Assembly (NCBI GenBank): GCA_947455805.1
Contig: CANGSN010000002.1
Location: 1 to 45,437 of the forward strand
Origin: Planctomycetota bacterium
GTDB lineage: Bacteria; Planctomycetota; UBA1135; UBA2386
Direction: 5' to 3'
DNA length: 45,437 nt
This document shows, piece by piece, positions 2,800 through 30,619 of this stretch; position 1 is the first letter of the stretch; every line of letters starts with the position of its first letter. The translations under genes were made by a program, and so were the position numbers. The notes under the pieces are model-generated. The model saw only the letters and a program-made list of their open reading frames with translations, had not been told where the DNA came from and made no database searches.

Positions 2800-3578
2800 A
2801 AGCGCAGACCGCCGCCGATCATGAAGCCGGAGACGGTCAGGTCGGTGTCGATCGTGTCGCCGTCGATCTCGCCGTCGACCTGCAGGTTCAGCGAGCGGTA
2901 GCCGGCGAACAGCGACAGCATCGCCGTCGGGTGCACCTGCAGCAGCGCCTCGATGTCGAGCAGCTTGCCGTCGACGTCGTCGATGCCGTACTCCATGTAG
3001 CCGAGCTCGAGCAGCGCGCTGACGATGCCGAGGTCGACCTCGCCGCGCAGGAAGCCGAGCGGCACCGGCGCCTGCAGCTGCACGTTCTCGGTCTGGATGC
3101 CGAGGCCGTCGCGCACGGTCAGGTCGATGTCGAACCAGTCGACCGCGATGCCGGGCGAGATCGCGACCGGGCCGAGCGAGATCTGGAAGGCGTAGGCGCC
3201 CTTCACGTTGGTGAAGTCGAGCTCCGAAGAGACCGGCACGCCGCCGGGGATCGAGATGCCGCCGATGCTGGTGCCGATGTCGCCGAAGTCGGCCTGCAGC
3301 ACGCCGTTCCCCGACTCGGAGAACTGGAACGCCGAGACGCTGAGCACCGGCACGCCGGTGTCGAGCGCCGCACGCACGTAGGGCGCACCGCGGTCGTCAC
3401 CGAGGCCGATCGCACTCTCGACGTCCTGGCGCACGGCGACCGAGTTGGTGCCGTTCACGTAGCCGATGTCGCCGCTGACGGCCATCTGTGCGTAGCCGAC
3501 GTTGCCCGACAGCGCGAGCTGGTAGCACGACGGCAGGATGCTGGTCGCCAGCAGTGCCGCGAAGAGAGGAAGTCGCAT
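2796..3578 (-). CDS. outer-membrane beta-barrel protein (260 aa)
   Basis: From the internal ATG at 3578-3576 of track ORF 2796..3806. It has a signal peptide (MRLPLFAALLATSILPSC), alternating Gly/aromatic beta-strand-like sequence, and the C-terminal ...GGGLRF ending in Phe that is typical of OMPs. It lies 8 bp downstream of the lipoprotein gene. Confidence 0.75.
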   Translation of the reverse strand: MRLPLFAALLATSILPSCYQLALSGNVGYAQMAVSGDIGYVNGTNSVAVRQDVESAIGLGDDRGAPYVRAALDTGVPVLSVSAFQFSESGNGVLQADFGDIGTSIGGISIPGGVPVSSELDFTNVKGAYAFQISLGPVAISPGIAVDWFDIDLTVRDGLGIQTENVQLQAPVPLGFLRGEVDLGIVSALLELGYMEYGIDDVDGKLLDIEALLQVHPTAMLSLFAGYRSLNLQVDGEIDGDTIDTDLTVSGFMIGGGLRF

Positions 3579-6997: not shown

Positions 6998-7446
6998 GGG
7001 GCCTCGAGGAGCGGGGATGGGACGGCCGACGAAGGGCCGCACGCTACCCGGAGCTGCGACGACCGCGATTCCCGAGGCGTCAGGGATCTGTCCCGGCGCG
7101 GGGCGCGCGCCGTTCCGGCCGCCGCGGGAACGCTTGCGCCAGGCGAAGTGCAGGTTCGGCAGCGTCTCGGGAACGTCCAGCGCCTGCACCCTACCTCCCC
7201 GTTCTCCACGCCCCGGCGACCGAACCGATCACCGGCCTGCGCGGCTCGACGCTGCGCGGCCTGACGCGCAGCATCACGCGCCACGCCATCGCCGACTTGA
7301 ACGGCGGCGAACTCGGCGCCGAAGCGGGCACCACGTCGCCGCCCGCCGCATGGTCGCGGCCCGCTACCGCTACGAGGGCACGGTGTCGCTCGGCCAGTCG
7401 ATGAAGATCGCGGCGGGGCAGCCCTGATCCGATGGGCTCGGATCGA

Positions 7447-9255
7447 TCACTGCAGCATGCGGTCGACGTCGGCGAGGATGGCGTCAGCCCAGGTCTGGTA
7501 CGCCGCGGCACTGAGGTGCAGGAAGTCCGGCATCACGTCCTTGGCGATGCGGCCGTCGGCGCCGACGAACTTCGCCGCGAGGTCGCGCCGCACGACGCGC
7601 GCATCGCCGGCGAACGCCGCGGCCGCTGCGGCGCTCGCGGCCGCGCACTTCTGCCGCTGCGCGTCGTTGGTCTCGCTGCGCGGGAACACGTCGAGCAGCA
7701 GCACGTTCGCGTCCGGCAACGCCTGCCGCAGCCGCCGCACGACGGTGACGATGCCGGCGGCGATCTCGTCGGCGGTGCACTCGTCGCCGTTGCTGTTGTT
7801 GGTGCCGATCATGACGACGATGGCGCGCACGTCGTTGTTCGCCGCCTTCAGCGCCTCGAGCAGGCCGCCACCTTGCGGGCCGCCATCGAGCCGCCACAGC
7901 ACGTGCTGCGTCTTGTCGCCGGAGACGCCGAGGTTCAGCGCGCGCCGCGGCACCCAGAACTCGTCCCAGCACGCCTTGCCGGTGCTGCCCCAGCCCTGCG
8001 TGATCGAGTCGCCGACCATCACCAGGCGATGGCCGCCGGCGCGCGCCGCCGCGAGGTCCTGCGCGACACGCTTGTCCCACCATTCGTCGAGGCGCGCCGT
8101 CGGCCGCACCGTGCCCGGCGGCCGATCCGGCACCGGCGACGGCGTCTTCGCCTTGTCGTCGAGCTCGGCGAGCGTGAACCGCACGCTGCGCACGAACGGT
8201 GCTTCGCCCGGTTCGAAGTGCCCGTACGACGTCACCACGAACGTGCCGTCCGCCAGCACCTCGACACCCGGATAGCCGCAGTCGCTGCCGCGCCAGTTGC
8301 GCGACAATCGCACGCGGTACTGCCCAGGCCGCGCGTTGGCGACGTCGTCGAACGTGCCGACCCACGCCACCCAGTCGCCGCGCGTCGGGCTGTCCTTCGC
8401 CATGTCGCGGAACGACAGCACGAGCCGCCCGTCACCCGCGTAGGCGCCGACGTGGCGATCGCCGGTCAGGCTCGCCGGCAGTTCGACCGGCGCCGACCAC
8501 GTGACCGCTTCGTCGTCGGAGACGCACACGTGGCTGTTCTTCGCCCGCCGGTTCTCGCGCAGCAGCATCGCCAGGCGTTTGCCGTCCGGCGAGCGCACGA
8601 CGCCGGGCTCGCACAGGTGCACGTCGCTGCCCTGCCACAGCACGCGCGGCGCACTCCAGCTGCGCCCACCGTCGCTCGAGTTGGTCTGGTAGAGCGTGAA
8701 CGCACCGCGCTTGCTGCCCGGCTGTTCCCAGCGGCCGTCGTCGTGGAAGAACGCGGCGTGCTCGCCGTTCGCCAGCCGCACGACGCTCGCCATCGCGACG
8801 ATGCCGCCGAAGTCGAACACCGGCTCGAGCTCGCTCCACGTCGCCCCGTCGTCCTCCGAACGCGCCATGCGGATCGGCCGCAGGCCGGAGAACAGCACGA
8901 GGCGCGCCACACCGTCGCGATCGACCAAACGGTGGATCGTCGGCGTCTCCTGGCTCGTCGCCCAGCTCGCCGGCACCGGCAGCGGCGCGCTCCACGTGCG
9001 ACCGCCGTCGCCACTCTTCTGCAGCACGATGGCGCCCTTGCCGTGGCCTTCGGGATGCACGCAGAACATCGTCTGGCCGTCGGGCAGCAGCACCGTCGTC
9101 GGATGGCCCTGGTACTTGCGGGCCACGCGATGCACGGTGACCTGCCGCGCGCTGTCGCCTTCCAGGTCGACGAACGCCGGCGGCGACTGGGCCAGACCGG
9201 CACGGAACAGCGACGCCGCCGCGAGCAGCGGCAGCACGACGGACGAGAGGCGCAT
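7447..9255 (-). CDS. BNR/Asp-box sialidase-like domain fused to an SGNH/GDSL hydrolase domain
   Basis: Signal peptide. Four Asp-box motifs (SGDGGRTW, SEDDGATW, SSDGGRSW, SDDEAVTW). The C-terminal ~200 aa carry SGNH blocks: GDSITQGW, GVSGD, GTNN, and DFLHLS at the end. Confidence 0.9.
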   Translation of the reverse strand: MRLSSVVLPLLAAASLFRAGLAQSPPAFVDLEGDSARQVTVHRVARKYQGHPTTVLLPDGQTMFCVHPEGHGKGAIVLQKSGDGGRTWSAPLPVPASWATSQETPTIHRLVDRDGVARLVLFSGLRPIRMARSEDDGATWSELEPVFDFGGIVAMASVVRLANGEHAAFFHDDGRWEQPGSKRGAFTLYQTNSSDGGRSWSAPRVLWQGSDVHLCEPGVVRSPDGKRLAMLLRENRRAKNSHVCVSDDEAVTWSAPVELPASLTGDRHVGAYAGDGRLVLSFRDMAKDSPTRGDWVAWVGTFDDVANARPGQYRVRLSRNWRGSDCGYPGVEVLADGTFVVTSYGHFEPGEAPFVRSVRFTLAELDDKAKTPSPVPDRPPGTVRPTARLDEWWDKRVAQDLAAARAGGHRLVMVGDSITQGWGSTGKACWDEFWVPRRALNLGVSGDKTQHVLWRLDGGPQGGGLLEALKAANNDVRAIVVMIGTNNSNGDECTADEIAAGIVTVVRRLRQALPDANVLLLDVFPRSETNDAQRQKCAAASAAAAAAFAGDARVVRRDLAAKFVGADGRIAKDVMPDFLHLSAAAYQTWADAILADVDRMLQ

Positions 9256-9324
9256 GCCGCACTCGTAGCGGCTCGGCCCGCCGAGGGGAATCCGAGCTCC
9301 GCGTTCTCCCGCACGGGCGAACTG

Positions 9325-10122
9325 CTACCGCGCCCCCGGAACGACGAACGAGCAACTCGCCCAGTAGCTCTCGTACTCGTGCGTCTCGACCTGCGGCCGC
9401 GTCATGTGCACCAGTCGCAGCGTCATCCAGCCGGGCTGTGCGATCGGCACGAGCGCCTCCCCTGCATCGTTGGTCCAAGTCGATCCCGCGATGTCCTCGC
9501 CGTTGCCCGGCAGGTCCCAGCCCAGCAGCGCACCCGCCAGTGGTTCGCCGGCGAACAGCACGAGCGTCCGCAAGGTGCGTCGCGGCTCGATCAGCGTCGG
9601 ATCCTCGAGCGGCACGATCTCCAGCGCCTGACCGACCGGTTCGGCGAAGCGACCTTTCCCGGCGCCCGTGCGGAACACGACCTTCGCGCACTTGCGGTAT
9701 CGCTCGGTCGCGTCGCGGCCTTCCTCGTGCGTATCCATGCGCGCTGCGAGCACCTTGGGCAGCCCTTCGTGCAGCAGGTAGTCGTTGAACTTGCGGGCGT
9801 CCAACGCGAGCAGCTGGGGCGCGGTGTCGCAGGTGGCGACGACCACTCCCGAAGACAGCGCCCCGAGATCGTGCGCGGTGGCCTTCGTGTCCGCATCGGC
9901 TCGAAAGCGCAGCAGCGCCTCCCGCGCCCCGTCGGGCCGCACGAGCCGCCCGGTCACGTTCGCGACGACGACGGCGTTGTCGCTCTCGGGAAAGGACATC
10001 CCAGTGCGCAGCGAGAGGCCGACGATCGCCCGATCGGCGCCCTCCACGGTCAGCAGCCAAGTCTCGTGTTTCGGCGAGCCGACGACGGCGACGACGAAGA
10101 TCGAGAGCGTGCGGCAGAGCAT
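9325..10122 (-). CDS. DUF4198-like periplasmic protein
   Basis: From the internal ATG at 10122-10120. A short signal sequence is followed by SPKHETWLL, the H-x-x-W start typical of mature DUF4198 proteins. It has beta-rich sequence and lies upstream of the sialidase-like gene on the same strand. Confidence 0.75.
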   Translation of the reverse strand: MLCRTLSIFVVAVVGSPKHETWLLTVEGADRAIVGLSLRTGMSFPESDNAVVVANVTGRLVRPDGAREALLRFRADADTKATAHDLGALSSGVVVATCDTAPQLLALDARKFNDYLLHEGLPKVLAARMDTHEEGRDATERYRKCAKVVFRTGAGKGRFAEPVGQALEIVPLEDPTLIEPRRTLRTLVLFAGEPLAGALLGWDLPGNGEDIAGSTWTNDAGEALVPIAQPGWMTLRLVHMTRPQVETHEYESYWASCSFVVPGAR

Positions 10123-10310
10123 GCTCGGGAAGGTGCGCGCGCAGGAATTCGTGTCGGCGAAACGCGCCCGAAGTCGCGAGGCTGCCCGACATGGGCGCGT
10201 CCGTGTGCACATCCCGATCGCTTCTGTCCCTCACCCACAGCGACCATGCAATCCGCTGCTGCTCGCTGCTCGCCGCGAAGTACTTGATCGGCCCTCACCT
10301 GACTGATCGG
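9965..10310. repeat. copy A of the duplicated DUF4198/DUF4394 junction (left flank of the insertion)
   Basis: Hand alignment with 13141-13500 gives long identical blocks (gacgatcgcccg, ggtcagcagccaagt, ttcggcgag, cgacgacggc, gtgcggc.gagcatgct, cccgaagtcgcgag, gcccgacatgg, gcgaccatgc.atcc, gctgctcgccgc, tgatcggcc). Several indels separate the blocks. Confidence 0.75.
10246..10287 (+). pseudogene. remnant of the 5' end of a DUF4394-type gene
   Basis: atgcaatcc...gctgctcgccgc...tgatcggcc aligns with the start of the intact gene at 13409 (atgcgatcc...gctgctcgccgc...ctgatcggcc). It has deletions and reads MQSAAARCSPRST before a stop. Confidence 0.5.
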
Positions 10311-10375
10311 ATCTCAAGATGCGCGCTGCATTCGGCACATGGACATAAAGTCTCTGTGCAAGTCTTGCGGCGACT

Positions 10376-12004
10376 TTAGTTGCTAGGCTCCAATATGAAC
10401 TTCATGGTACCAATCGATGAGATCACTCCGCCCGAGGTCGCGCTGGCGCTGCCGAGCCGAACTTGTAGCGGCCGGTAGCCGTCCGACTCCAAGGAGTACG
10501 ACTGCACCTCGCTTTCGAGCACCAATGTGATGCTGCCGGCCGAATCAAAGAATCCTGAGGCGACTACGGGATCACCGAGAGCAGGAGTTTCGACACGCAT
10601 GGTGTAACCGGTTACTGGCATGCCACAACTATCCTCCACGGACATGCGCACGGGTCGGCAGGGAAACTTCGACACCACTTCTACCATAGATCGCTGACCG
10701 GCTACAACATTCAATTGCAATGGCAACTGCAGACACTTTGCGGTGACCTCATCTGGCGACATCAAGATGTATTCACCATCGGGGACGCGAAGGCCGCTCG
10801 GGGACACGACCTTGGCGAAGCGAGGTTCGCCACGCCGAACTGCGATCAAATGTGGCATAAGTCCTGCATCGCAATCGACGCCGGTTAACAATAACTGGAC
10901 CTCCCCCGTTCGGTCTCCCCCACCCCCGGCAGAAATTCTGGTCGGAACAAGTCGCTCAAGCCGGCTAGCACTGAGCGTCGCACTGCCCCAGCCACCCTGG
11001 CGACAGTAGTAGTCCAAGCGAACAACCGGCTCACCAGCCCCCGCCGGCGGCGCGAACACGGCCACTATGGATTGGGGGTATCGCCTCCTTATTTCGTCAG
11101 CGTGGCGGCTGTAGGTCGACAGTGTTCGCCCAATGACCGCCGGCATAGACGTGTAGGTCCAAGTGTGGTAGAGAATCTCAGCGTCAAGTTCCACTGCTAC
11201 ACCGACAAGAGGCGCGAGAGTCACGTCAAGGGTGGTTGCCTCCCCAGCTCTGATGGTCATCAGCAGGCTTCTTGCATCGAACACCTCAACGCAACCATCG
11301 AGCCGCGCCTCAACGTGGTGGATACCAGGAAACAGAGCAGGAAACACCGCTTCGCCCTGAACACATGACGCCCACGCGGCCGCGCTCGGCGAGTCCAACA
11401 TCAGCCCCCCGATCCATTCTTCACGGGCGTTCAGAGAGCTAGTAGGTTGGCGTGACACGGTGACCGTGGCGCCGCGCGGCAACGAGCCATCTACCATTCG
11501 CACCTGCACATGCGCCGAGCCAGAACGAGTTGCGCGCAGCACGATGTCGCCAACTAGCGGCGACCACCTAGCCGGAGCAACCACATGCGATGACGCTTTG
11601 CCGACAACCCATTCTGGAGCCACAGCATCTGCATTGACTTCGATGGCCCCCTGAGCGTCACTCACCCCCATCCATCTGATGACGCTTGCAGCCATACACC
11701 GCTCAGTGATCGGCCCATTCAACGTCCCAATCTCGACCCCGGGAACGGCCTTGCCCTCCTCGTCACGAACCAAGATTCGAACGGCCTTCGTGGGGATCTC
11801 GCGGTTTAGAACTGCGTAATGATCGAGGGGGCGGAACTCGCCGGACTGCGGCATGGCCACTTCGGACCCCACGTACCTCGCCGCCGGTGCAGCCTCTTTG
11901 ATGGCCGGATCGGCAAGCTGTTGGTCGTAGCCCCAGCAGCTGATGCCCCACATGACGCCCACCAACGCCAACAAGAGCACAAACACGCGCATGACCGTAT
12001 TCAT
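10376..12004 (-). CDS. membrane-anchored protein with carboxypeptidase-regulatory-like (Ig-like) repeats, on the lower-GC insertion
   Basis: Start taken at the ATG at 12004-12002, which overlaps the upstream stop as ATGA. The N-terminal anchor is MNTVMRVFVLLLALVGVMWGISCW. Repeated segments have the form VRILVRDEEGKAVPGVEIGT, VQVRMVDGSLPRGATVTVS and VRMSVEDSCGMPVTGYTMRVET. Third-position GC is clearly lower than in flanking genes. Confidence 0.8.
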   Translation of the reverse strand: MNTVMRVFVLLLALVGVMWGISCWGYDQQLADPAIKEAAPAARYVGSEVAMPQSGEFRPLDHYAVLNREIPTKAVRILVRDEEGKAVPGVEIGTLNGPITERCMAASVIRWMGVSDAQGAIEVNADAVAPEWVVGKASSHVVAPARWSPLVGDIVLRATRSGSAHVQVRMVDGSLPRGATVTVSRQPTSSLNAREEWIGGLMLDSPSAAAWASCVQGEAVFPALFPGIHHVEARLDGCVEVFDARSLLMTIRAGEATTLDVTLAPLVGVAVELDAEILYHTWTYTSMPAVIGRTLSTYSRHADEIRRRYPQSIVAVFAPPAGAGEPVVRLDYYCRQGGWGSATLSASRLERLVPTRISAGGGGDRTGEVQLLLTGVDCDAGLMPHLIAVRRGEPRFAKVVSPSGLRVPDGEYILMSPDEVTAKCLQLPLQLNVVAGQRSMVEVVSKFPCRPVRMSVEDSCGMPVTGYTMRVETPALGDPVVASGFFDSAGSITLVLESEVQSYSLESDGYRPLQVRLGSASATSGGVISSIGTMKFILEPSN

Positions 12005-12462
12005 GGAATCTTGCAGGTACAGGCATCGGTCCACGCAAGACCCACCGGCAGTTGCTTGATGCACTTCTGGCTCGGTGGGGGCGTCGTGGCCGGACAGAGA
12101 TCGGGGTTGTCAATCCAGCACTCCCATGTAGGGTTTCGCCCTGCGCCATCCACACGCAGGGTGGCGTTGCAGGCCTTGGCAGCATCGACGTGGCCCGTAG
12201 GGTTGTTCGCCCGATTTGCGCAGACACACTTCCACTCAGTGAAGGTCGAGCCATCCGTCGTGGTCACAGTAGCGCAGAAGTTGTATGGAGCCGCGTAAGT
12301 GCTGCAATCACCGATACAAGATCCGATGTAGTAGCCACCCACGTGCTGTATCTGCAGCCTGCAGTCGCCCGCAGCCGGGACCAACAAGGACTTTGCACCG
12401 ATCATGGCTATCCCAGCGAAGACCAAGGAAATGGAACGCATGAAGATATCTGATTTGAGCAT
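12001..12462 (-). CDS. small secreted cysteine-rich protein (12 Cys)
   Basis: Signal peptide (MRSISLVFAGIAMIGAKSLL). The mature part of about 120 aa has 12 cysteines (GDC, GSCIGDC, NFC, WKCVC, KAC, WECW, DLC, QKC, DACTC). I recognise no family. The alternative start is the ATG at 12441. Confidence 0.75.
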   Translation of the reverse strand: MLKSDIFMRSISLVFAGIAMIGAKSLLVPAAGDCRLQIQHVGGYYIGSCIGDCSTYAAPYNFCATVTTTDGSTFTEWKCVCANRANNPTGHVDAAKACNATLRVDGAGRNPTWECWIDNPDLCPATTPPPSQKCIKQLPVGLAWTDACTCKIP

Positions 12463-12511
12463 GATTCGTTCGGGTTATCTGTAGATTCTTTAAGGGTTTA
12501 ATGAACCGACA

Positions 12512-12952
12512 TCAAGCTAGATTGTGCCTTGGCGTGCTTTGCCTGAATCGCATTGCCAGCGCGTAACTCGACCAACCGCCCAACAATCCCGCAGCAACGA
12601 GACGTTGCGCTTGACTCAGCTCATAGAGCCGCCCCAGGCAGCCACAGGGTTGGTCACCTGCCGCCAACCCTATCACGACGAAGCCGACAGCCAGTGCGAG
12701 GGTGGCCCAAAGCGCCACCCTCCAAAGAGACGTCAGCAACGTCACGCCGATCAGAGCTTCGAACAAGCAGACCACAGTCAAGGAAGCGCTCGAAATCAGA
12801 TCCGCACCAAGCGTCAACTTGGCGGTAGAGAGAAAGAGCAAGAGCACCGACAGACCTTGCCGATGCCTCAGAATGGCTCGTGACCGTCGCATGTCTTCCA
12901 TGACAGACTGATCGCCATCGAACAGGATGGCCTTCGACTTCGATCTCCGCAC
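12512..12952 (-). CDS. MauE/DoxX-like small integral membrane protein
   Basis: Four predicted TM helices, with a PCGCLG motif after helix 3 that resembles the CGCFG motif of MauE-family proteins. The start is ambiguous: GTG at 12952, ATG at 12901, or ATG at 12892. Confidence 0.65.
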   Translation of the reverse strand: MRRSKSKAILFDGDQSVMEDMRRSRAILRHRQGLSVLLLFLSTAKLTLGADLISSASLTVVCLFEALIGVTLLTSLWRVALWATLALAVGFVVIGLAAGDQPCGCLGRLYELSQAQRLVAAGLLGGWSSYALAMRFRQSTPRHNLA

Positions 12953-12995
12953 TCAACCCACCCCATGCAGCGGGGCCGACTTATTTGAGAGCTTT

Positions 12996-13024
12996 TGTGC
13001 AGTAGACGGTAAACAACCCCCGCG
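12996..13024 (-). promoter_or_regulatory. sigma-70-like promoter candidate for the insertion operon
   Basis: On the minus strand: TTGACG (13024-13019), a 17-nt spacer, then TACCGT (13001-12996), about 40 nt upstream of the GTG at 12952. Confidence 0.35.
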
Positions 13025-13140
13025 CCTTCGTCAATCTTTTCCCTACATTCTCTAAGCAACCTCCCCGCAATTTCTTGTAGCGCCTCCCGGATCATTCATT
13101 CGTGCTTCCTGTTCCAGAGCTGAAGTAGTACCCCTGGAAG

Positions 13141-13301
13141 CCGGACGTTGTCGCCCTCGGGGCACGACACTCCGGTGCGCAGCGAAAGCTCGACGATCGC
13201 CCGGCGCCCTCGACGGTCAGCAGCCAAGTGTCGCGCTTCGGCGAGTCGACGACGGCAACCGGGGCGGCGGAGGCGACCAGCGAATGCGTGCGGCGGAGCA
13301 T
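13141..13301 (-). pseudogene. truncated, frameshifted 5' fragment of a DUF4198-type gene
   Basis: It reads MLRRTHSLVASAAPVAVVDSPKRDTWLLTVEGAGR, then shifts frame. The other frame continues AIVELSLRTGVSCPEGDN. Compare the intact gene: SPKHETWLLTVEGADRAIVGLSLRTGMSFPESDN. Homology ends at about 13141. Confidence 0.65.
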
Positions 13302-13500
13302 GCTGGGTCCGGTGCGCGGGCAAGCGGAACGAACCCGAAGTCGCGAGATAGCCCGACATGGTCGCGGTGGCCCGCACCTCCCGGTAGCTCCTCCAACCCG
13401 AAGCGACCATGCGATCCAAACTCCCCCACCTGCTCCTCCCGCTGCTCGCCGCCCCCGTCGCGGCGCAAAGCCTGATCGGCCTGTCGTCCGACAACCGCCT
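13141..13500. repeat. copy B of the duplicated DUF4198/DUF4394 junction (right flank of the insertion)
   Basis: See copy A. It holds the decayed DUF4198 5' end, the divergent intergenic region, and the intact start of the DUF4394 gene. Confidence 0.75.
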
Positions 13501-15334
13501 GATCCCGCTGCGCACCACGGCGCCGCTGGCCGCCGGTCCCACCGTCGCGATCACCGGCCTGCAACCGGGCGAGGCGATGCTGGCGATCGATTTCCGCCCC
13601 GCGAACGGCCGCCTCTACGGCTTCAGCTCGCAGGGCCGCCTCTACACGATCACCGCCGCGTCCGGCGCCGCGGCCGCCGTCGGTTCGCCGATCCCGATGC
13701 CCGCCGGCACCGAGTGCGGCTTCGACTTCAACCCGACCATCGACCGCATCCGCCTGGTCAGCGACGCCGGCGTCAACCTGGTGCTCAACCCGGACACCGG
13801 TGCTTTGCAGGCGACGCAGACGCCGCTGGCGTTCGCGGCGACCGATCCGAACGCGGGCTTCGCGCCGAACGTCGCCGCTTCCGCCTACACCAACAACGTC
13901 GCCACGGCGACGACGACGGTGCTCTACAACCTCGACGCCGCGCGCGACGTGCTGACGACGCAGATCCCGCCGGGTGCGGGCACGCAGAACACCGTCGGCA
14001 GCCTCGGCCGCGACGTCACCGCGGTCGCCGGCTTCGACATCGCAGCCAACGGCACCGCCTACACAGCACTCAACACGAACGGCGCCGCGAGCGGCACGAC
14101 GCAGCTGTTCACGGTGGATCTCTCGAACGGTTCGCTGACGTGGCTCGGCATCGTGCCGAACCCGAATCCGACGGCGCGCCTGCGCGGCCTCGCCGCCGTG
14201 CCGCCGGGCGCCGACGTCGAGGTCGTGGTGCTGACCGGCGACGGCCGCCTCGCGCGCTTCGACGCCACGTCGCCGTGGCAGGTGCCGACCGTCGCCAACG
14301 TGCAGGGCTTGCTCGCCAACGACAGCCTGGTCGCGATCGACTTCCGCCCGGCCACCGGCGAGCTCTACGGGCTCGGCGCGCTGGGCCAGCTCTACGTCGT
14401 CGACGCGCAGAGCGGGCAGGCGACGGCGATCGGCAGCGGCTTCGCCGCGGCGATGCAGGGCACGCGCTTCGGCTTCGACTTCAACCCGACCATCGACCGC
14501 ATCCGCCTCGTCAGCGACGCCGGCATCAACCTGGTGCTCAACCCGATCACCGGCGCGCTGCAGGCGACGCAGACGCCGCTGCAGTTCGCGGCGACCGACG
14601 TGCACGCGGGAACGATGCCGCAGGTGTTCGCCAGCGCCTACACGAACAACCTCGCCGGCGCGGTGACGACGGTGCTCTACGGCCTCGATGCGACGAACGA
14701 CGCGCTGGTCAGCCAGATCCCGCCGGGTGCCGGCACGCTGAACACGATCGGCAGCGGCCTCGGCTTCGACGTCGGCACCGTCGGTGGCTTCGACATCGGC
14801 GCCGACGGCATCGCCTACGCAGCGCTCGGCAGCAGCCCGCAGCAGTCGGTGCTGCACCGCATCGACCTGCAGCTCGGCACGTCGACCAACATCGTCGACC
14901 TGCGCGCAGCCCTCGGTGCCGCGGTCCTCGGTGTCGCCGTGCGCAACCCCGTCGGCATCGACGCCTTCGGCACCGCCACCAACGGCTGCGCCGGCCCCGC
15001 CTGGCTCGGCGCCGCCGGCACTCCGTTCGCCGGCAGCACGCAGTTCACCGTCGTCGCGCACAACGCGGCGCCGAACACGCTCGGCTTCTTCGTGCTGGCG
15101 GCGGACCGCCTGCCGATGGCGCTCGACATCGGCGGCCTGCAGGCGTGGATCGACCCGAACCAGCACGTCGTGGTGGCGATGCGCGCCCACGACGCCGCCG
15201 GCCGCGCGTCGCTGGTGATGCCGCTGGCCGGCGCCTGGTTCGGCCTGCCGACCTACTGGCAGTGGATCGGCCTCGACGTCTGCGGCCCGATGGGCCTCGC
15301 GACCTCGGCGGCGATGCGCGTCATCGTGCAGTGA
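13409..15334 (+). CDS. secreted protein with two tandem DUF4394 domains plus the shared C-terminal module
   Basis: Signal peptide (MRSKLPHLLLPLLAAPVAAQS). The pattern LAIDFRPANGRLYG...FGFDFNPTIDRIRLVSDAG.NLVLNP.TGAL occurs twice. The last 122 aa (TNGCAGP...AAMRVIVQ) are the shared module. Confidence 0.9.
   Translation: MRSKLPHLLLPLLAAPVAAQSLIGLSSDNRLIPLRTTAPLAAGPTVAITGLQPGEAMLAIDFRPANGRLYGFSSQGRLYTITAASGAAAAVGSPIPMPAGTECGFDFNPTIDRIRLVSDAGVNLVLNPDTGALQATQTPLAFAATDPNAGFAPNVAASAYTNNVATATTTVLYNLDAARDVLTTQIPPGAGTQNTVGSLGRDVTAVAGFDIAANGTAYTALNTNGAASGTTQLFTVDLSNGSLTWLGIVPNPNPTARLRGLAAVPPGADVEVVVLTGDGRLARFDATSPWQVPTVANVQGLLANDSLVAIDFRPATGELYGLGALGQLYVVDAQSGQATAIGSGFAAAMQGTRFGFDFNPTIDRIRLVSDAGINLVLNPITGALQATQTPLQFAATDVHAGTMPQVFASAYTNNLAGAVTTVLYGLDATNDALVSQIPPGAGTLNTIGSGLGFDVGTVGGFDIGADGIAYAALGSSPQQSVLHRIDLQLGTSTNIVDLRAALGAAVLGVAVRNPVGIDAFGTATNGCAGPAWLGAAGTPFAGSTQFTVVAHNAAPNTLGFFVLAADRLPMALDIGGLQAWIDPNQHVVVAMRAHDAAGRASLVMPLAGAWFGLPTYWQWIGLDVCGPMGLATSAAMRVIVQ
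13718..13858 (+). repeat. internal repeat unit 1 of the DUF4394 gene
   Basis: About 141 nt that are close to 90% identical by hand count to 14471-14611, at an offset of 753 nt (251 codons). Confidence 0.8.
14471..14611 (+). repeat. internal repeat unit 2 of the DUF4394 gene
   Basis: See 13718-13858. Confidence 0.8.
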
Positions 15335-15367
15335 TCGCGTGCGGGGTCCACGTGGCCCCGGCGGTCG

Positions 15368-15730
15368 TCACAGGCCGACGACGACCTGGAAGCCGCCGTA
15401 CGACATCTTCTTGATGTCGAACGGCATCGGCCCATCCGCCAGCTTCGCCATGCGCTTGTCGGCCATCACCGCGGTGTTGACCGCGTCGCGGTGCGCCTTC
15501 GACTTGAAGGTGACGAACGAGAACAGCACCGTCTCGGTGCTCTTGCACTTCGCGCGCTTCGGGAACGGCATGCCGCCGCCCTTCGGATGGTCGTCGCCGA
15601 CGCATTCGTAGAAGCCCAGCGCGCCGTGCGCCTTCCACAGGCGCCCCGCCTTCTTCGCCAGCGTCACGTAGTCGGCGAGCTTCTTCTTCGCGACCACGAC
15701 CAGGAATCCGTCGACATACTTGGACTTCAT
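15368..15730 (-). CDS. DUF1428 family protein (YbaA-like)
   Basis: From the internal ATG at 15730. MKSKYVDGFLVVV...WKAHGALGFYECVGDD...VLFSFVTFKSKAHRDAVN...MPFDIKKMSYGGF matches the DUF1428 pattern. 120 aa. Confidence 0.88.
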   Translation of the reverse strand: MKSKYVDGFLVVVAKKKLADYVTLAKKAGRLWKAHGALGFYECVGDDHPKGGGMPFPKRAKCKSTETVLFSFVTFKSKAHRDAVNTAVMADKRMAKLADGPMPFDIKKMSYGGFQVVVGL

Positions 15731-15796
15731 GCGGCATGCATACCCGATGGCCGCTCGGATCCGCAGCATCGTCGCCGATGGACACCTGGACCATGG

Positions 15797-15985
15797 TCAG
15801 CGCGAGCGCGCGACATGCTCCGCCCACCACGCCGGCAGCGACGGATTGAACCGCTGCCACGCGACGCCGTGGTAGTCCGCGCGCCGCAGCTGCACGCCGA
15901 CGAGGACCGCTGCCAGGAGCAGGCTGCCGACGACGAACCATGGCCACGTCGGCGGAGCGGCGCGGGCGCGGCAGCGAGCGCTCAG
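15797..15985 (-). CDS. possible small single-TM protein with a non-canonical (CTG) start
   Basis: A high-GC3 frame reads ...TWPWFVVGSLLLAAVLVGVQLRRADYHGVAWQRFNPSLPAWWAEHVARSR before a stop. There is no ATG/GTG/TTG before the helix. The CTG at 15985-15983 overlaps the TGA of the upstream gene (CTGA). It is not in the ORF track. Confidence 0.25.
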   Translation of the reverse strand: MSARCRARAAPPTWPWFVVGSLLLAAVLVGVQLRRADYHGVAWQRFNPSLPAWWAEHVARSR

Positions 15986-17163
15986 AGACCGAGAACGAGC
16001 GCCAGGCCGTTGCTCAGCTCGGCGAAGCCCAGGAACGGCCCGTTCGCGGCCAGCGCCAGGGTCTGCGCGGTCATCGAGAAGCCGGCGAGGGTGCCGTCAC
16101 CCGACACCGGCAACGTCGTCGACAACACGCCCGCGGCATCCGTGACACCGACGAAGCCGATGGCCGCCGACAACGGGTCGATCTGCAGCGTGCAGGCGCC
16201 GAGCGGCACCGGGACCGGCGAGCCAACCGACAAGCCGAGGACCACCGGCGCCTGCGCCGGCGCCCCGTTCGTGGTCAGCACGAGATTGCTGCCGAGCAGC
16301 GGAACGGTCGCCGCGAGCGTCGGCGGGGTCGCGCCACAGCCGACGCCGACCGACTGCACCGAGGCCTGCAGCGACGGGTAGGTGGTGCCGCTGCAGAAGG
16401 TCAACCCCGCACCGGGAGTCAGGCAGCGGAAGTCGAACAGGCTCTCGAGGTCGATCGCATAGCTCGCCGACGCGGGCGGCCCGTTGCGCACGCCGTACTC
16501 GTCGACGTTGCAGGTCATGCTGCCCTCCACGTAGAGCGTGGCACCGACCGTCGTCGGCACGAGGGCGCTGGTGAGGCCGGTCGTCGACGACAAGGACGCG
16601 ACGATCGTGTTGATGCCGAGCCCCGACGACGCCGGGTCGACGCGGATCTCGGCGCTGTAGTTCGAGACCAGCGGCAAGTTGCCGGTGAGCACGCACGAGC
16701 CGGACATGCGCACGCGGAGCAACAGCTGCACCGGCGTACCGACCGGCAGGCTCTGGCTCTGCACCGTCAGCGTGTCGCGGAAGCGCACGACCGGCAGGCC
16801 GAAGCCGGTTTGCAGGACGTAGAGCGAGGTGCCGTTGCCGTTCCAGTTCTGTGCCTGCCCGGCGCCCTGGATGCGCAGCCGGCCGAACTGCGCCTGGGTC
16901 TGCATCGTGCCTTGCGAGAAGAGGCTGACGCCGGGCGAACCGCCGCCGTTCTGCTGCATCGTGTTGACCGCCGACGACTGCCAGCCGGTGTCGACCTGGA
17001 CGATGTTCGAGGTCGCGGTCAGGTTGCCCATCTGGTAGGTCGAGCGCACGCTGCAGTTCTGGCTCTGCGCGGCAAGCGGCGATGCCAAGGTGAGCAGCAA
17101 GCCGAGCCGGGCGGCCAGGCGGCGGCAGGACAAGAACGTCGGAAGGTCGTTCGAGGTGTTCAC
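15982..17163 (-). CDS. secreted hypothetical protein carrying the shared C-terminal module
   Basis: Signal peptide (RLGLLLTLASPLAAQS). The body is Ser/Thr/Gly-rich and beta-like. The last 122 aa (GVGCGAT...LGACTLQIDP...LSNGLALVLGL) are the shared module. Confidence 0.8.
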   Translation of the reverse strand: MNTSNDLPTFLSCRRLAARLGLLLTLASPLAAQSQNCSVRSTYQMGNLTATSNIVQVDTGWQSSAVNTMQQNGGGSPGVSLFSQGTMQTQAQFGRLRIQGAGQAQNWNGNGTSLYVLQTGFGLPVVRFRDTLTVQSQSLPVGTPVQLLLRVRMSGSCVLTGNLPLVSNYSAEIRVDPASSGLGINTIVASLSSTTGLTSALVPTTVGATLYVEGSMTCNVDEYGVRNGPPASASYAIDLESLFDFRCLTPGAGLTFCSGTTYPSLQASVQSVGVGCGATPPTLAATVPLLGSNLVLTTNGAPAQAPVVLGLSVGSPVPVPLGACTLQIDPLSAAIGFVGVTDAAGVLSTTLPVSGDGTLAGFSMTAQTLALAANGPFLGFAELSNGLALVLGL

Positions 17164-17261
17164 GGCGCCAGGAAGCGTAATGGATCTCGAATCCGCACGA
17201 GGATTCCGGCGCGGCCGCCGCCGCCCGCCCGACAGCCCGCAGCGTTGTGGCGGACCGGCCT

Positions 17262-17277
17262 GCTATCCTGTTCGCCC
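17262..17277 (+). promoter_or_regulatory. GCTATCCTGTTCGCCC box (candidate extended -10) just upstream of the ABC-F gene
   Basis: TGCTATCCT has the form TGnTAnnnT. It ends 5 nt before the ATG at 17282. The same 16-mer, with one mismatch, lies upstream of argS at 30586-30601. Confidence 0.35.
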
Positions 17278-17281
17278 CCAG

Positions 17282-19183
<1,902 letters not shown>

Positions 19184-26964: not shown

Positions 26965-27678
26965 CTAATCAGGCCGCTCGACCTGCTCCCATTCGAGCCC
27001 GGCTACCTTCGCGAGCTCGAGCACTCGTTCGAACGGCCGAGAGTCCAAGGCGGTCGCCCACAAACAGAGCCCCTCCTGCGTTTCGACGACGAGGTCGGCA
27101 TCGCCGTAGAGCCGCACTGGTTCGAAGAACCAGGGAATGTCGAGAACCGGCAAGCGCGGCAGGTGCTCGACGATCGCAGCGCAGACGGATTCCTGGGCCG
27201 CCACGCCGTAGGCGCGGAAGAGCGTTCGGGGCGAGTTCTTCACCCCGAGAAGCAACCACCAGACCGCCAGGTCGCAGATGCTCGGCGCTGCCTGACGCAG
27301 GTTCCGCTCGTCGTCGGCGAGGAGCACCACAGCGGGGTCCGTCTCGTGCAATGCCGCCAAGGGGATCGCCCATCGATGCACTCCCTGGTTCTCGCAGGCA
27401 ATCACCAGATGTCCCTGGTCGACGCACAGTTCGTGCGGCGCATACAGAACGTCCTGCACGTTCCACGCATCGGTGCGATGCCCGAATCGCTCGTGGAGCT
27501 CGCGCAGGGCGGCCGGCAATGCAAAGCCGAGCCGCGCTTCGGCTCGGTCCAGTTCGCCGGGCTTCGTCGTCGGTGCGGCCCCATCGCCATACCAATCGGA
27601 GAGCAACCCCGCGACGTGGCGCCACTTCGCTTCACGTGCAGACGATCCACCCGACGCGGAGTCCTCGATGCGTGTCAT
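26965..27678 (-). CDS. SMI1/KNR4 (SUKH-1) family immunity-like protein
   Basis: ELDRAEARLGFALPAALRELHERFG is the characteristic SMI1_KNR4 N-terminal motif. 237 aa with no signal peptide. Confidence 0.78.
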   Translation of the reverse strand: MTRIEDSASGGSSAREAKWRHVAGLLSDWYGDGAAPTTKPGELDRAEARLGFALPAALRELHERFGHRTDAWNVQDVLYAPHELCVDQGHLVIACENQGVHRWAIPLAALHETDPAVVLLADDERNLRQAAPSICDLAVWWLLLGVKNSPRTLFRAYGVAAQESVCAAIVEHLPRLPVLDIPWFFEPVRLYGDADLVVETQEGLCLWATALDSRPFERVLELAKVAGLEWEQVERPD

Positions 27679-27688
27679 GCAGCAGCCT

Positions 27689-28135
27689 TCATAGCCCCTT
27701 GACGACCCGCACTGGGCTCGTCGAACCGTCCAGACAGAAGCTCACCACCATCCACATGCGATCGAACACGAACCCGCGCCTCTGCAGCCCCACGTAGTAG
27801 CCGAGCTCGGCTTCTTCGACCCGCGCTTCCGGCTCCGATTCGCCGAGCATCGCCACGATCTCGGCGCGCGTTCGCCCCTTCCACGACCCCACAGCCATCA
27901 TGCAATCCAGCATCGCGAAGCGAACGCCCTCAGCGACGCACGCCGGATCGCGCCAGCGCACAGGGTCGAAGTTGCACCCGGGGTAGACGATCGGCCTGAG
28001 CGCGCTGGCGACGATCACGAGCACGCAGAAGCCGGCGAGCCAGGCCAGGGAGCGCGGAATCGCGACTCCATCGGAGCGCAGCGCAGCTCGCAATCCCGCC
28101 GAAGCCGTCACGGCATCTGAGGCCCTGAGTCTCAT
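27689..28135 (-). CDS. membrane-anchored hypothetical protein (BamE/SmpA-like small domain?)
   Basis: One TM helix (LAWLAGFCVLVIVASAL). The segment WKGRTRAEIVAMLGE...LGYYVG...MVVSFCLDG resembles the SmpA/OmlA fold pattern. It lies 10 nt upstream of the SUKH gene. Confidence 0.6.
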   Translation of the reverse strand: MRLRASDAVTASAGLRAALRSDGVAIPRSLAWLAGFCVLVIVASALRPIVYPGCNFDPVRWRDPACVAEGVRFAMLDCMMAVGSWKGRTRAEIVAMLGESEPEARVEEAELGYYVGLQRRGFVFDRMWMVVSFCLDGSTSPVRVVKGL

Positions 28136-28161
28136 GGGAGCTCGTCGTTCCTACACCCGCC

Positions 28162-28848
28162 CTACAAGAGCTTGCTCCAGAACTCGATCGGCGGAATCGA
28201 GTCGGGCCACGTACGACGCCCTGGGAGTTCGAACTCATGGCGCAGGTAGTCCTCGAGATCGAAGCCGTAGTAGATGACGTCCGTCTGGTGCACGGAGAAC
28301 ACCGGGTTTCCCGCTCGATGGGGGCTGGCTGGGATCATTCGGTGCAAGAACACCGGAACGAGCTTCGGCGCAGCATCGAGGAACTTGGCCGCCACCAGCT
28401 TGGCCTCGGCGGCAGAGTCCGGACGCGTACCCCATTCCGCCATCCAGACCTCATTGTGCTCGACGTCGAACAGGACCCCTTCTTTCGGCCCGTCCATCCA
28501 AGATCTCAGCGAGCCGTCGACACCTGCCCGCCAGTCTGGGAAACCGTCGCCCTTCGGGAGCGCAGTCTGCAAGAACCTCCGCAGGTCTGGCGGGAACCTG
28601 AATCCGTACTTCCGCTCGATCTGAGCAACCTCCCGGTCCGTGAGCCCAGACTCGAACGTGACGACGAATGGCTTCGTCTCGGGCGTGACGATCCCGTGGT
28701 AGTACTCAGCGCCGGTCAACTCCGCGACGAGCTTGGTCCAGTCCATGGCTCCTGCCTCCGGTCCCTGGGACGCCCGGTGGACCGCGCATGACGCCATCAT
28801 GGCTGCACACGCAAGGCTGCCCAACATCTTGCTTCGGATCACCTGCAT
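28162..28848 (-). CDS. SMI1/KNR4 (SUKH)-like immunity-type protein
   Basis: LTDREVAQIERKYGFRFPPDLRRFLQTALP is a SUKH-type motif. The N-terminal MLGSLACAAMMASC could be a lipobox. The alternative cytoplasmic start is the ATG at 28746 (MDWTKLV...). Confidence 0.7.
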   Translation of the reverse strand: MQVIRSKMLGSLACAAMMASCAVHRASQGPEAGAMDWTKLVAELTGAEYYHGIVTPETKPFVVTFESGLTDREVAQIERKYGFRFPPDLRRFLQTALPKGDGFPDWRAGVDGSLRSWMDGPKEGVLFDVEHNEVWMAEWGTRPDSAAEAKLVAAKFLDAAPKLVPVFLHRMIPASPHRAGNPVFSVHQTDVIYYGFDLEDYLRHEFELPGRRTWPDSIPPIEFWSKLL

Positions 28849-28906
28849 CTTCGCACGTCGTGTTCACGCATCCGCCGCGAGCGGCGTTGCGGCGCTGGCC
28901 GGCTGC

Positions 28907-29305
28907 TCAGGTTGCGAACCGCCAGAAGCTGTCGTCTCTCCAGACACAAGCGACGAACCAGATCAGGTTGCCTGTGTCCAGCAGCAACAAGACGAGGCAC
29001 GCGATGCTCAGGCCAACGTTGGCAGGAGCGAGCAGAAGCCCTGCGACTACTGCCATGCCCACCAACGGAATGCCGGATACGTTGCGGTACCTGCCTCTTC
29101 GCCTCAGAAAGTGATACACGAGAGGGCGTAGGAAGGAGAGGTAGAAGTTGAGGACGCAGATCCACGCGCCCAGGCAGAAGACCGAGTAGGCAAGCACGGT
29201 GCACGAGCCGCCGAAAAGCCTCCGCTCGACGAAGATCGACCCAATCGGCACCGCAAGCAGCAAGAGGACTGCGATGACAGCGATGCTCTTCCGTACGACG
29301 ATCAT
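28907..29305 (-). CDS. small polytopic membrane protein (132 aa)
   Basis: From the internal ATG at 29305, with four hydrophobic helices (IAVIAVLLLLAVPIGSIF, CTVLAYSVFCLGAWICVL, IPLVGMAVVAGLLLA, LSIACLVLLLLD). I recognise no family. Confidence 0.6.
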   Translation of the reverse strand: MIVVRKSIAVIAVLLLLAVPIGSIFVERRLFGGSCTVLAYSVFCLGAWICVLNFYLSFLRPLVYHFLRRRGRYRNVSGIPLVGMAVVAGLLLAPANVGLSIACLVLLLLDTGNLIWFVACVWRDDSFWRFAT

Positions 29306-29384
29306 GCCCACCCGACTTCTTTGACCCTCAGCCGCGAGCGCTGCTGCGGCGCTCTCCGGCTTCAAGGTCGTGTTGGGCAGCAGT

Positions 29385-29852
29385 CTATCGTCCCCTGATC
29401 GTCCGATCGCGTGCACCCGACCAGGATCTGATGTGGAGGACGTTTCCCGGCTCCATGCCTCGCAGGTCCGGCTCCTCGGTCGCCGTCAGGATGCCGGAGC
29501 CGGACCACTTGCCGTCGCGTGTCCAGTCTCCGACGAGCGTCTCGTCGAGCATCAAGGAGCGAATGAAGCTGATCGGGTCGCTTTCGGGCCATGGAACCGG
29601 AACCGGCCAGTCGAAGTGCATGTGGAACATGCCAAAGCCCACGGTGATCTCCCCCCCATCGGTGGTGACCCAGAACTCGCAATCCTGTCGGACCGGTCCC
29701 GGCTCGAGGTGAATCAGCAGCAGACCATTCTCGGCGCGGGCGTGGTCGCGGAGGCTCGGAACGGCGGCGAAGAGCGCGTCAGCGAATGATCGTGAAAAGT
29801 CGTCAAGTCCGTCCATTGTCCGCAAACCTGCCTGCCCAACGTCTTTGCCCAT
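29385..29852 (-). CDS. hypothetical cytoplasmic protein (155 aa)
   Basis: Track ORF with balanced composition. Its ATG (29852-29850) overlaps the stop of the upstream gene as ATGA. I recognise no family. Confidence 0.6.
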   Translation of the reverse strand: MGKDVGQAGLRTMDGLDDFSRSFADALFAAVPSLRDHARAENGLLLIHLEPGPVRQDCEFWVTTDGGEITVGFGMFHMHFDWPVPVPWPESDPISFIRSLMLDETLVGDWTRDGKWSGSGILTATEEPDLRGMEPGNVLHIRSWSGARDRTIRGR

Positions 29853-30262
29853 CAGCCGCCGGCGCCGCTTGGGGCGCCGGCCGGCTGCTTGGGCTTGTTG
29901 GGCGGTGCTTGCCCCCTCCCCCGCAACACGAGGCGTAGAGCAACGGCGATGGCGACGGAGGGGATCGAGTAGATTGCGCCGTAAGCCCAGCCGAAGTACA
30001 GCGCGAAGGTCCGCTTGGCACCGTCGGCAAGAAGACGGTCGAGCACCTCCGGTGGCGGGTCTGGCTGATCAGCAAGGTCTGCCAAGTGCTCGAAGTAGAA
30101 GTAGACTGCGCCGTTTGCGAGTATCCACCCTACAAGTGAAGTCCACAGTGTGAGCAGCGCCCATGATGCCGTGGAGTGACGAAGGAGCCGGCGGGTGAAC
30201 ACAGCTGGCTGCAGCAGCAGGAATGCTGCGACGCAAGCGACACATGCACAGTGACTCCACAT
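29852..30262 (-). CDS. small polytopic membrane protein (136 aa)
   Basis: From the internal ATG at 30262 (MWSHCACVACVAAFLLLQ...), with 3-4 hydrophobic helices and a Pro/Gly-rich tail. It is the first gene of the six-gene minus-strand cluster. Confidence 0.6.
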   Translation of the reverse strand: MWSHCACVACVAAFLLLQPAVFTRRLLRHSTASWALLTLWTSLVGWILANGAVYFYFEHLADLADQPDPPPEVLDRLLADGAKRTFALYFGWAYGAIYSIPSVAIAVALRLVLRGRGQAPPNKPKQPAGAPSGAGG

Positions 30263-30585
30263 CCGCCCAACTCGTGTTCGAGGGAAGTGCCGAAAGCCGG
30301 CAGGCCTCGTTCCCCGCAGCCTATCGCCGCTCACCGACGCTGCAACCCGGCCGAGCACACCATCACCGGTCACCTGCACCGGCCTTCATGAGAAGTGCCT
30401 AACTCCGGAGCCGGGCAGGGCCCGAGCACCTCACGCGCGAACGAGTCTCCGCTCGCCCCTGAAGCCGCCAACCCCCGAGACGAGACCCGCGACCCAGCTC
30501 CCCACGCTCACGCCCCCTTCCCAAACGCCACCCACGCACTTCCCCGCACTTCCCCACCGCACCCTCCGCCGCACCGCCCCGCATC

Positions 30586-30601
30586 GCTATCCTGCTCGCC
30601 C
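30586..30601 (+). promoter_or_regulatory. GCTATCCTGCTCGCCC box upstream of argS
   Basis: A 15/16 match to 17262-17277 upstream of the ABC-F gene. It contains TATCCT (TAnnnT) and lies 19 nt before the GTG at 30620. Confidence 0.3.
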
Positions 30602-30619
30602 TTCCAACCGAGCACGAAC

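Follow-up and report, generated by a model that had tools for sequence, protein, structure and literature searches.

A foreign three-gene islet between two copies of a divergent gene-pair junction in a planctomycete genome

Introduction

How can foreign genes enter the short region between two divergently oriented genes and leave both of them whole? This question is raised by a 45,437-nt stretch of Planctomycetota DNA (the window; all coordinates are positions in it). In this stretch, a DUF4198 gene and a DUF4394 gene point away from each other and are separated by an islet of three genes of lower GC content (the cargo). A copy of the DUF4198-DUF4394 junction lies at each end of the cargo. An earlier reading of the window (the original prediction) had taken this arrangement for a foreign insertion bracketed by a diverged duplication.

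We found that the islet is a true insertion between formerly adjacent divergent genes. We consider it fairly probable that a foreign islet was inserted, that a junction of the recipient's own lineage was duplicated, that the redundant halves of the two copies decayed in place, and that the cargo was kept. Below we describe the two copies, the same site in relatives, and the evidence for and against this course of events.

Results

Two copies of the junction flank a region of lower GC content

The intact DUF4198 gene (9325-10122, minus strand) encodes 265 amino acids (Pfam PF10670, E 4.6e-18). The intact DUF4394 gene (13409-15334, plus strand) encodes 641 amino acids with two DUF4394 domains (Pfam PF14339, E 9e-136). 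Both genes had been named correctly in the original prediction. A comparison of the window with itself using blastn paired 9975-10254 with 13146-13417 in direct orientation (E 1.2e-40), and the two segments compared alone also aligned significantly (E 1.4e-44). This pair is the second strongest internal repeat of the window. The strongest lies within the DUF4394 gene (13583-14071 and 14333-14827, 76% identical), corresponds to its two domains, and is an ordinary domain duplication. A repeat search resolved the junction pair into five co-linear blocks with a spacing of 3167-3188 positions and 75-90% identity.

Aligning the copies with relatives in MAFFT gave refined limits. Copy A extends over 9975-10296 (322 nt) and takes in the 5' end of DUF4198, the intergenic region, and ~50 nt from the start of DUF4394. 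Copy B is the corresponding segment on the other side of the cargo and covers 13146-13485 (340 nt). These limits are within 15 nt of those proposed originally (9965-10310 and 13141-13500). The divergent intergenic region between DUF4198 and DUF4394 is 123 bp. Of 302 ungapped columns, 238 (78.8%) are identical between the copies. Seven indels, which take up 58 columns, also separate them, and the longest stretch of perfect identity is 17 nt. The original prediction had put the identity of alignable blocks at ~75-85%, with several indels.

Both copies contain a truncated gene start that faces the cargo. In copy A, the dead DUF4394 start (10246-10287, plus strand) reads MQSAAARCSPRST and then a stop. 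In copy B, the dead DUF4198 5' end (13146-13301, minus strand) is frameshifted by a 4-bp deletion; its translation reads ...SPKRDTWLLTVEGAGR up to the frameshift. Both translations agree with those quoted in the original prediction. The frameshifted DUF4198 stub still forms a 69-codon open reading frame (ORF; 13092-13301). Its stop overlaps (ATGA) the start of a 75-codon ORF (12868-13095), an overlap that is probably fortuitous.

Between the copies lies the inserted cargo (10297-13145, 2849 bp, GC content 0.583). The GC content of the window is 0.70-0.73 and falls to 0.52-0.62 between ~10200 and 13200. GC content at third codon positions (GC3) is 0.66-0.69 in the cargo ORFs, compared to 0.88-0.96 in the flanking genes. 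The cargo is thus foreign in composition, and the ~2.8 kb of lower GC content with relaxed third positions noticed earlier is real. The junction halves, at 66-72% GC, are unlike the cargo.

Relatives carry the site empty, filled, or with other content

We found the empty site in four short contigs of relatives (L081, L082, L089, and L090; L-numbers denote such contigs), which were reached through DUF4198 protein homologues at 84-88% identity. In all four, DUF4198 and DUF4394 are adjacent and divergent, with one junction and no insert. Their gene order (sialidase/GDSL, DUF4198, DUF4394) matches the window, in which a BNR sialidase-like/GDSL gene (7447-9255, minus strand; Pfam) lies downstream of DUF4198 and provides a synteny anchor. 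The single junction of these contigs aligns to both copies in the window. Nucleotide identity to the window is 93% for L081 and ~85% for L082, L089, and L090, and the contigs come from at least three sequencing studies. Because close relatives carry DUF4198 and DUF4394 adjacent to each other with a single junction, the islet is an insertion, as originally proposed.

The filled site is present in at least seven other assemblies from several projects. An 8.5-kb scaffold from the European Nucleotide Archive (L083) contains the whole structure at 98.2% identity, and both of its copies are the same as those of the window. Five other contigs (L091-L095) and one JGI contig contain the cargo, some with copy B, at 99.5-99.9% identity. 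Mis-assembly, which would have refuted the original prediction, is therefore rejected: independent assemblies repeat the structure, L083 spans both junctions, and the cargo and the junction at copy B are backed by L091-L095. No allele with a duplicated junction and no cargo was present among the relatives examined.

A third state of the site is found in L001, a Planctomycetota metagenome-assembled genome from Lake Mendota. Its flanking genes are 91-95% identical to those of the window (95% for the DUF4394 product), and it has neither DUF4198 nor the islet. Instead, a different block of 3.35 kb (L001 1066-4416) with host-like GC content and approximately six ORFs takes the place of window positions 9282-13341. 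The right breakpoint of this block (window 13342) coincides with the point, described below, at which copy B switches from aberrant to native-like sequence. The interval between the flanks is thus a variable slot. The sialidase/GDSL gene is syntenic in the four empty-site contigs, L083, and L001.

Farther away, the gene pair is arranged differently. Among 79 more distant DUF4394 loci (L002-L080), only four have DUF4198 nearby, on the same strand as DUF4394, and DUF4198 homologues at ~66% identity are found in other gene contexts. The divergent arrangement is therefore particular to this clade. The DUF4394-based scan of species-representative genomes placed the window within Planctomycetota, and the related loci were mostly from Phycisphaerae or Phycisphaerales; the host is probably Phycisphaerae-related.

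The copies are native-like and decayed in mirror image

We used L081 as an unduplicated reference at the sites where the two copies differ. L081 has the states of copy A up to ~10165 (position 13333 of copy B) and those of copy B from ~10181 (position 13348 of copy B) onward. The switch falls at ~10166-10181 in copy A and 13333-13348 in copy B. Each copy is native-like beside its intact gene and aberrant in its other half. In copy A, the left half (9975-~10165) is native-like and the right half (~10181-10296; A-right) is decayed. In copy B, decay affects the left half (13146-~13333; B-left), and the right half (~13348-13485), which serves the intact DUF4394 gene, is native-like. Alignment with the relatives thus upholds the view that each intact gene kept a junction copy of its own.

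The decayed halves together contain 6 indels in ~320 bp (~1 per 53 bp). B-left has the 4-bp frameshifting deletion, a 12-bp deletion in the proximal part of the intergenic region, and 18 unique substitutions in 149 coding columns. A-right has gained 4 bp in one insertion, has lost 20, 5, and 1 bp in three deletions, and shows ~16% unique substitutions. The same 20-, 5-, and 1-bp deletions separate the DUF4394 stub from the intact gene, and over 49 gap-free columns the stub has 8 substitutions unique to its lineage.

The intact DUF4198 gene has changed as well. It lacks 12 bp in frame (four signal-peptide codons) between 10091 and 10092, a deletion that L083 shares. These 12 bp are kept in all the other relatives, in which the DUF4198 homologues (84-88% identity) are 269 amino acids long, and also in copy B. 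Copy B is thus a small molecular fossil of DUF4198 as it was before the 12-bp deletion.

The duplicated sequence groups with the window's own clade

We compared the decayed halves with the relatives site by site. B-left shares six derived coding states and six proximal intergenic states with copy A and L081 against L089 and L082. A-right shares two or three derived states with copy B, L081, and L001 against L089 and L082. These site patterns indicate that the duplicated sequence is of same-clade (window/L081) origin.

Both decayed halves are on accelerated branches. In a Tajima-type count, B-left had 18 unique substitutions and the copy A lineage had 7 (p = 0.028). A-right had 19 unique substitutions compared to 3 (p = 0.0006). 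The unique changes in B-left are spread over the codon positions (4/7/7), a pattern suggestive of a loss of coding constraint, in a signal-peptide region that is loosely constrained even in the functional L082 gene (7/4/9).

The position of the switch is also informative. L001 begins to match the window at 13342 despite entirely different upstream genes, which marks out a conserved unit of ~65 bp upstream of DUF4394. Decay in place predicts that constraint ends where function ends, and so would account for a switch at this functional boundary.

The cargo is a three-gene module found in other genomic contexts

All three cargo genes are on the minus strand. Gene 1 (12512-12952) encodes a small membrane protein of 146 amino acids with a CGCLG motif. 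Its match to Pfam MauE (PF07291; 20.6 bits, E 5.8e-4) is below the gathering cut-off of 27, and the protein can be called only MauE-like. Homologues are encoded in L096 (49% identity) and L097 (37% identity), in the same gene order.

Gene 2 (12001-12462) encodes a secreted protein of 153 amino acids with a signal peptide and 12 conserved cysteines. It had no family match in Pfam, NCBIfam, or PHROGs. All 12 cysteines are kept in its homologues P0053 (59% identity) and L097 g153 (51% identity). The predicted structure (mean predicted local distance difference test score, pLDDT, 55) was too poor for a fold search.

Gene 3 (10376-12004) encodes a protein of 542 amino acids. The start of this gene and the stop of gene 2 share 4 nt. 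This overlap is conserved in L096; in L097, a 4-nt overlap is found instead between the first two genes of the module. The protein has a weak CarboxypepD_reg match in Pfam, and no match to any of the three cargo ORFs was found in NCBIfam or PHROGs. A word-based search of 5.8e9 proteins returned only the 542-amino-acid protein itself. A full HMMER search of 1.8 billion representatives returned six weak relatives (the best 29% identical, E 1.5e-37), one of which led to L097. The AlphaFold2 model (pLDDT 67) has an N-terminal transmembrane helix followed by tandem beta-sandwich domains. Foldseek matched the model to Gram-positive pilins and the TIE protein, generic matches with template modelling scores (TM-scores) of ~0.15-0.2. 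As modelled, the domains resemble pilin/CnaB-type modules only generically.

The three-gene order is the same in both other contigs. In L096 (GC content 0.60), the first two genes are 49% and 59% identical to those of the cargo. In L097 (93-4376), the three genes are 37%, 51%, and 28% identical and lie directly downstream of a DDE_Tnp_1/DUF772 transposase. The L097 module (GC content 0.54-0.59; flanks 0.65-0.67) looks like an islet there too. The cargo is a conserved three-gene module that also occurs in unrelated genomic contexts.

The right end of the cargo (12953-13145) is probably non-coding and forms the leader of the cargo operon. The 75-codon ORF that extends into it (12868-13095) has codon-position GC contents of 0.54/0.53/0.55, with no coding signal, and five of the nine cargo differences between the window and L083 fall within 12989-13073. 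It is probably not a gene. A promoter scan found no sigma-70-like promoter, and the terminator-like matches of a terminator scan were inside ORFs and uninformative. Transcription of the operon may start in its own leader or at the duplicated promoter on the DUF4198 side.

The cargo has probably been maintained by purifying selection since its insertion. The indel density of the decayed halves predicts approximately 50 indels in 2.85 kb, and ORFs of 542, 153, and 146 amino acids are nevertheless intact. The retention of all 12 cysteines at 51-59% identity and of the 4-nt overlap in L096 likewise speaks for constraint. Based on the gene neighbourhood and on what is known of MauE, the cargo most likely encodes a secreted or envelope module, with the MauE-like protein assisting disulfide formation in the 12-cysteine protein. 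A literature search for links between MauE or DoxX and cysteine-rich substrates returned nothing relevant.

The islet carries no signature of a transposon, integrase island, or prophage

Pfam scans of the islet and of ten large flanking ORFs located between 192 and 23341 detected no integrase or transposase. No transposase and no tyrosine or serine recombinase was matched in the cargo ORFs by NCBIfam or PHROGs. The reported absence of such genes therefore holds for the regions scanned. There is no tRNA or tmRNA gene in the whole window, and Rfam had no match in 9000-14000. A comparison of the cargo ends for terminal inverted repeats gave only chance matches of up to 8 nt.

The duplication of 322-340 bp greatly exceeds the target-site duplication of a transposon (a few bp to ~14 bp), as the original prediction had argued. 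On these grounds (no transposase, integrase, inverted repeats, tRNA, or PHROGs match, and the length of the duplication) a transposon, an integrase island, and a prophage were ruled out.

The cargo DNA had no match among 72,556 plasmids and 50,697 phages. Besides the contigs with the filled allele, only L096 and L097 carry cargo homologues, and neither shows the junction segment.

Discussion

A proposed course of events

We propose that an islet of ~2.85 kb inserted in the 5' region of DUF4394, beside the short divergent promoter region shared with DUF4198. The insertion would have duplicated ~330 bp of the recipient's own junction (the 5' end of DUF4198, the intergenic region, and the 5' end of DUF4394). 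In this way, neither gene would have lost any of its 5' end or of the sequence just upstream. The redundant halves, the DUF4394 stub with its upstream sequence in copy A and the DUF4198 stub with its upstream sequence in copy B, would then have lost constraint and decayed in place. Decay of the redundant half-copies would explain the 79% identity of the copies and most of their seven indels. The repeats, with identical runs of at most 17 nt, are no longer good substrates for excision by homologous recombination. Throughout, the three-gene operon would have stayed intact.

Such duplicative events probably persist at this site for a simple reason. A plain insertion ~50 nt into DUF4394 would truncate that gene, and one in the 123-bp intergenic region would separate one of the two genes from its upstream sequence.

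Since then, ordinary homologous recombination in the flanking genes would have carried the allele with the islet from strain to strain. Over 9000-15400, the window differs from L083 by 0.17%, compared to 7.6% in the adjacent sialidase gene (7349-9000) and ~2.4% beyond 15500. A tract of ~6.5 kb that includes the islet and is common to otherwise diverged strains suggests transfer by recombination in the flanks or a gene-specific sweep.

The formation step could have been a one-step illegitimate insertion with a flanking duplication, made at a staggered break or by a template switch. Alternatively, a circle carrying a same-species junction could have integrated by a Campbell-type crossover. We regard the one-step insertion as slightly more parsimonious, because the Campbell route presupposes an earlier illegitimate linkage of cargo and junction, and one step explains both.

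Points for and against decay in place

We favour a duplication of the recipient lineage's junction, with copies that were nearly identical at first and then decayed in mirror image, over import from a diverged lineage. We do so because the aberrant halves carry window/L081 derived states on accelerated branches and because native and decayed halves are arranged in mirror image. The reciprocal decay is visible in the alignment itself; that it took place at this site is what we infer. Of the two alternatives offered by the original prediction, an old event and a donor from a related lineage, we thus favour the first and disfavour the second.

Several observations weigh against this account. First, the unique divergence of the decayed halves is 12-16%, approximately twice the synonymous divergence per branch between the window and L081 (synonymous substitutions per site, dS, 0.13; ~0.065 per branch). 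Second, copy A and L081 share a derived state that is absent from B-left at three or four sites, and copy A and copy B share one at two sites. At face value, this would place the divergence of the duplicated sequence slightly before the split of the window and L081. Branching at that point would need a loss of the islet in the L081 line, a replacement of the flanking allele by recombination, decay faster than the synonymous rate, or a donor. Third, the codon-position test is not decisive. Fourth, A-right is more decayed and more AT-shifted than B-left, which neutral decay of halves of equal age does not predict. Last, no donor was found in the plasmid and phage collections and no intermediate allele among the relatives. 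Taken together, the site patterns suggest an event at least as old as the split of the window and L081 and younger than the split from L082 and L089 (dS 0.44), unless the flanks were exchanged or the donor was moderately diverged.

Other explanations

The best surviving alternative, which we consider possible but unlikely, is a Campbell-type single crossover in the intergenic region with a circular donor. The junction on that donor would have already diverged by ~15-20%, either in a related lineage or during long extrachromosomal decay. Copy A would then be recipient sequence on the left and donor sequence on the right, and copy B the reverse. The original prediction had suggested integration of this type, and the architecture fits: direct repeats flank the insert, the DUF4394 and DUF4198 stubs face inward, and the intact genes are outside, exactly as in a single-crossover product. 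The reciprocal pattern with one switch point in each copy is predicted alike by a crossover chimera and by decay in place. Selection would allow only intergenic crossovers, so that the place of the switch says little against this model. B-left is ancestral at the three or four sites where copy A and L081 are derived, and its branch is longer than the synonymous distance between the window and L081 permits under a simple clock; a diverged donor would account for both. However, the diverged halves carry the derived states of the window and L081, not those of L082 and L089. Their branches are significantly accelerated, and they have frameshifts and substitutions spread evenly over codon positions, unlike a functional homologue. 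RecA-dependent recombination depends on sequence identity, and between segments that are ~80% identical, with identical runs of at most 17 nt, it would be very inefficient. The junction halves, moreover, do not have the composition of the cargo, and the collections of plasmids and phages contained no donor replicon.

A more far-reaching idea, which we regard as improbable, is that the islet is a passive, recombinase-free Campbell cassette. The two junction copies would recombine with each other, loop out a circle of junction and cargo, and allow that circle to re-enter relatives with an empty site. The cargo would be a new mobile system, in which the MauE-like protein matures the secreted 12-cysteine protein and the latter acts with the beta-sandwich protein at the surface. 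If this were true, the element would carry its own homology arm.

Slightly less probable still is a history in which duplication and insertion occurred independently. The junction (~330 bp) could first have been duplicated in tandem, with the cargo arriving later at or near the join, or an insertion sequence (IS) or composite transposon could have lost its ends and transposase by later deletion. Tandem duplications are frequent in bacteria, and the homologous module in L097 adjoins a DDE transposase. However, at least two independent rare events would be needed at the same few nucleotides. In addition, neither cargo end has an IS remnant, a terminal inverted repeat, or a transposase fragment, and none of the relatives has the duplicated junction free of cargo.

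We reject an ancestral origin of the three genes with later deletion in the relatives, and likewise an assembly chimera. Precise deletion can be mediated by direct repeats, and a single empty site such as L081 could in principle be a revertant; the locus is also variable (L001 has its own 3.35-kb block). However, deletion cannot create truncated duplicate gene starts. The derived states that B-left shares with the window/L081 clade place the duplication after the splits of L082 and L089 and make those sites primarily empty. The GC3 of the cargo is far from that of the host, and at least seven independent assemblies have the structure, with both junctions spanned in L083.

Neighbouring observations

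Two other regions of the window drew our attention. A dip in GC content at ~27000-32000 includes a run of five small minus-strand ORFs (26965-29852; GC3 0.76-0.82). Two of these have SMI1_KNR4 (SUKH-1) matches below the Pfam threshold, and the run may be a toxin-immunity gene array. It is followed by an arginyl-tRNA synthetase gene (30395-32350). The second region (15751-17262) has no nucleotide similarity to the corresponding interval of L001 (6827-9962), apart from a conserved patch of 157 bp; the intervals are 1.5 kb and 3.1 kb, respectively. That of the window holds a gene for a secreted protein of 393 amino acids with no Pfam match. Within a gene for an ABC-F type ATPase (17090-19183), two pairs of repeats (17385-17438 with 18345-18398, and 17762-17865 with 18608-18711) are 79-81% identical and probably correspond to the two ABC domains of the protein.

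Significance

The locus is an unusually well-documented natural case of foreign genes placed beside a shared divergent promoter with both neighbours undamaged. With empty, filled, and alternative-content alleles at hand, it could be used to calibrate the decay of pseudogenes against synonymous divergence in a planctomycete of 70% GC, and it could illustrate the spread of an islet by recombination in its flanks. It also draws attention to a small, conserved, and mobile three-gene module. The kind of event is already known, and the locus reveals no new class of mobile element and no new mechanism.

Comparison with known systems

The cargo recalls systems in which small membrane proteins of the MauE/DoxX type are encoded beside secreted cysteine-rich substrates, as in the genes for methylamine dehydrogenase maturation. 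Here too, a gene for a small polytopic membrane protein, which has a Cys-x-Cys motif (CGCLG), directly precedes one whose product is secreted and rich in conserved cysteines. Unlike the mau clusters, the islet has only a sub-threshold match to MauE (20.6 compared to 27 bits) and no other mau genes, and those clusters have no counterpart of the tandem beta-sandwich protein.

Transposons and IS elements likewise leave a target sequence directly duplicated around the insert. Their duplications are 2-14 bp, in contrast to 322-340 bp here, where there is no transposase, terminal inverted repeat, or IS remnant. Homology-facilitated illegitimate recombination, with one homologous and one illegitimate end, was the other route named in the original prediction. 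It is not expected to leave a flanking duplication, and this part of the prediction did not hold up.

Models of microhomology-mediated break-induced replication (MMBIR) and fork stalling and template switching (FoSTeS) describe how the repair of staggered breaks or replicative template switching can give insertions with a flanking duplication. The diagnostic junction microhomology is no longer readable at our locus because the inner ends have decayed. Duplications are also induced by transformation: the tandem duplications of pneumococcal merodiploids are 100-900 kb and depend on pre-existing repeats (PMC3784515). As in our islet, template-switch and transformation duplications capture foreign or ectopic sequence at the join of a short tandem duplication with no dedicated recombinase.

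Campbell-type integration resembles the islet in having direct repeats as long as the homologous segment, truncated fragments inward and intact genes outward, and no need for a recombinase. It differs in that no circular donor or plasmid backbone was detected here, the repeats are 79% identical, and the repeat is of the recipient's own clade and the cargo foreign. The first linkage of cargo and junction would still have needed an illegitimate event.

The H47 genomic island of E. coli is small and recombinase-free, with long imperfect direct repeats made of patchy blocks of homology, and its excision and reintegration were shown experimentally and are RecA-independent (PMC5426353). Our islet is likewise small, has no integrase of its own, and lies between extensive imperfect direct repeats (79% identity, 322-340 bp). 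Unlike those of H47, its repeats are demonstrably the duplicated junction of a gene pair, with decay in mirror image; this pattern is suggestive of an element that is fixed, not mobile.

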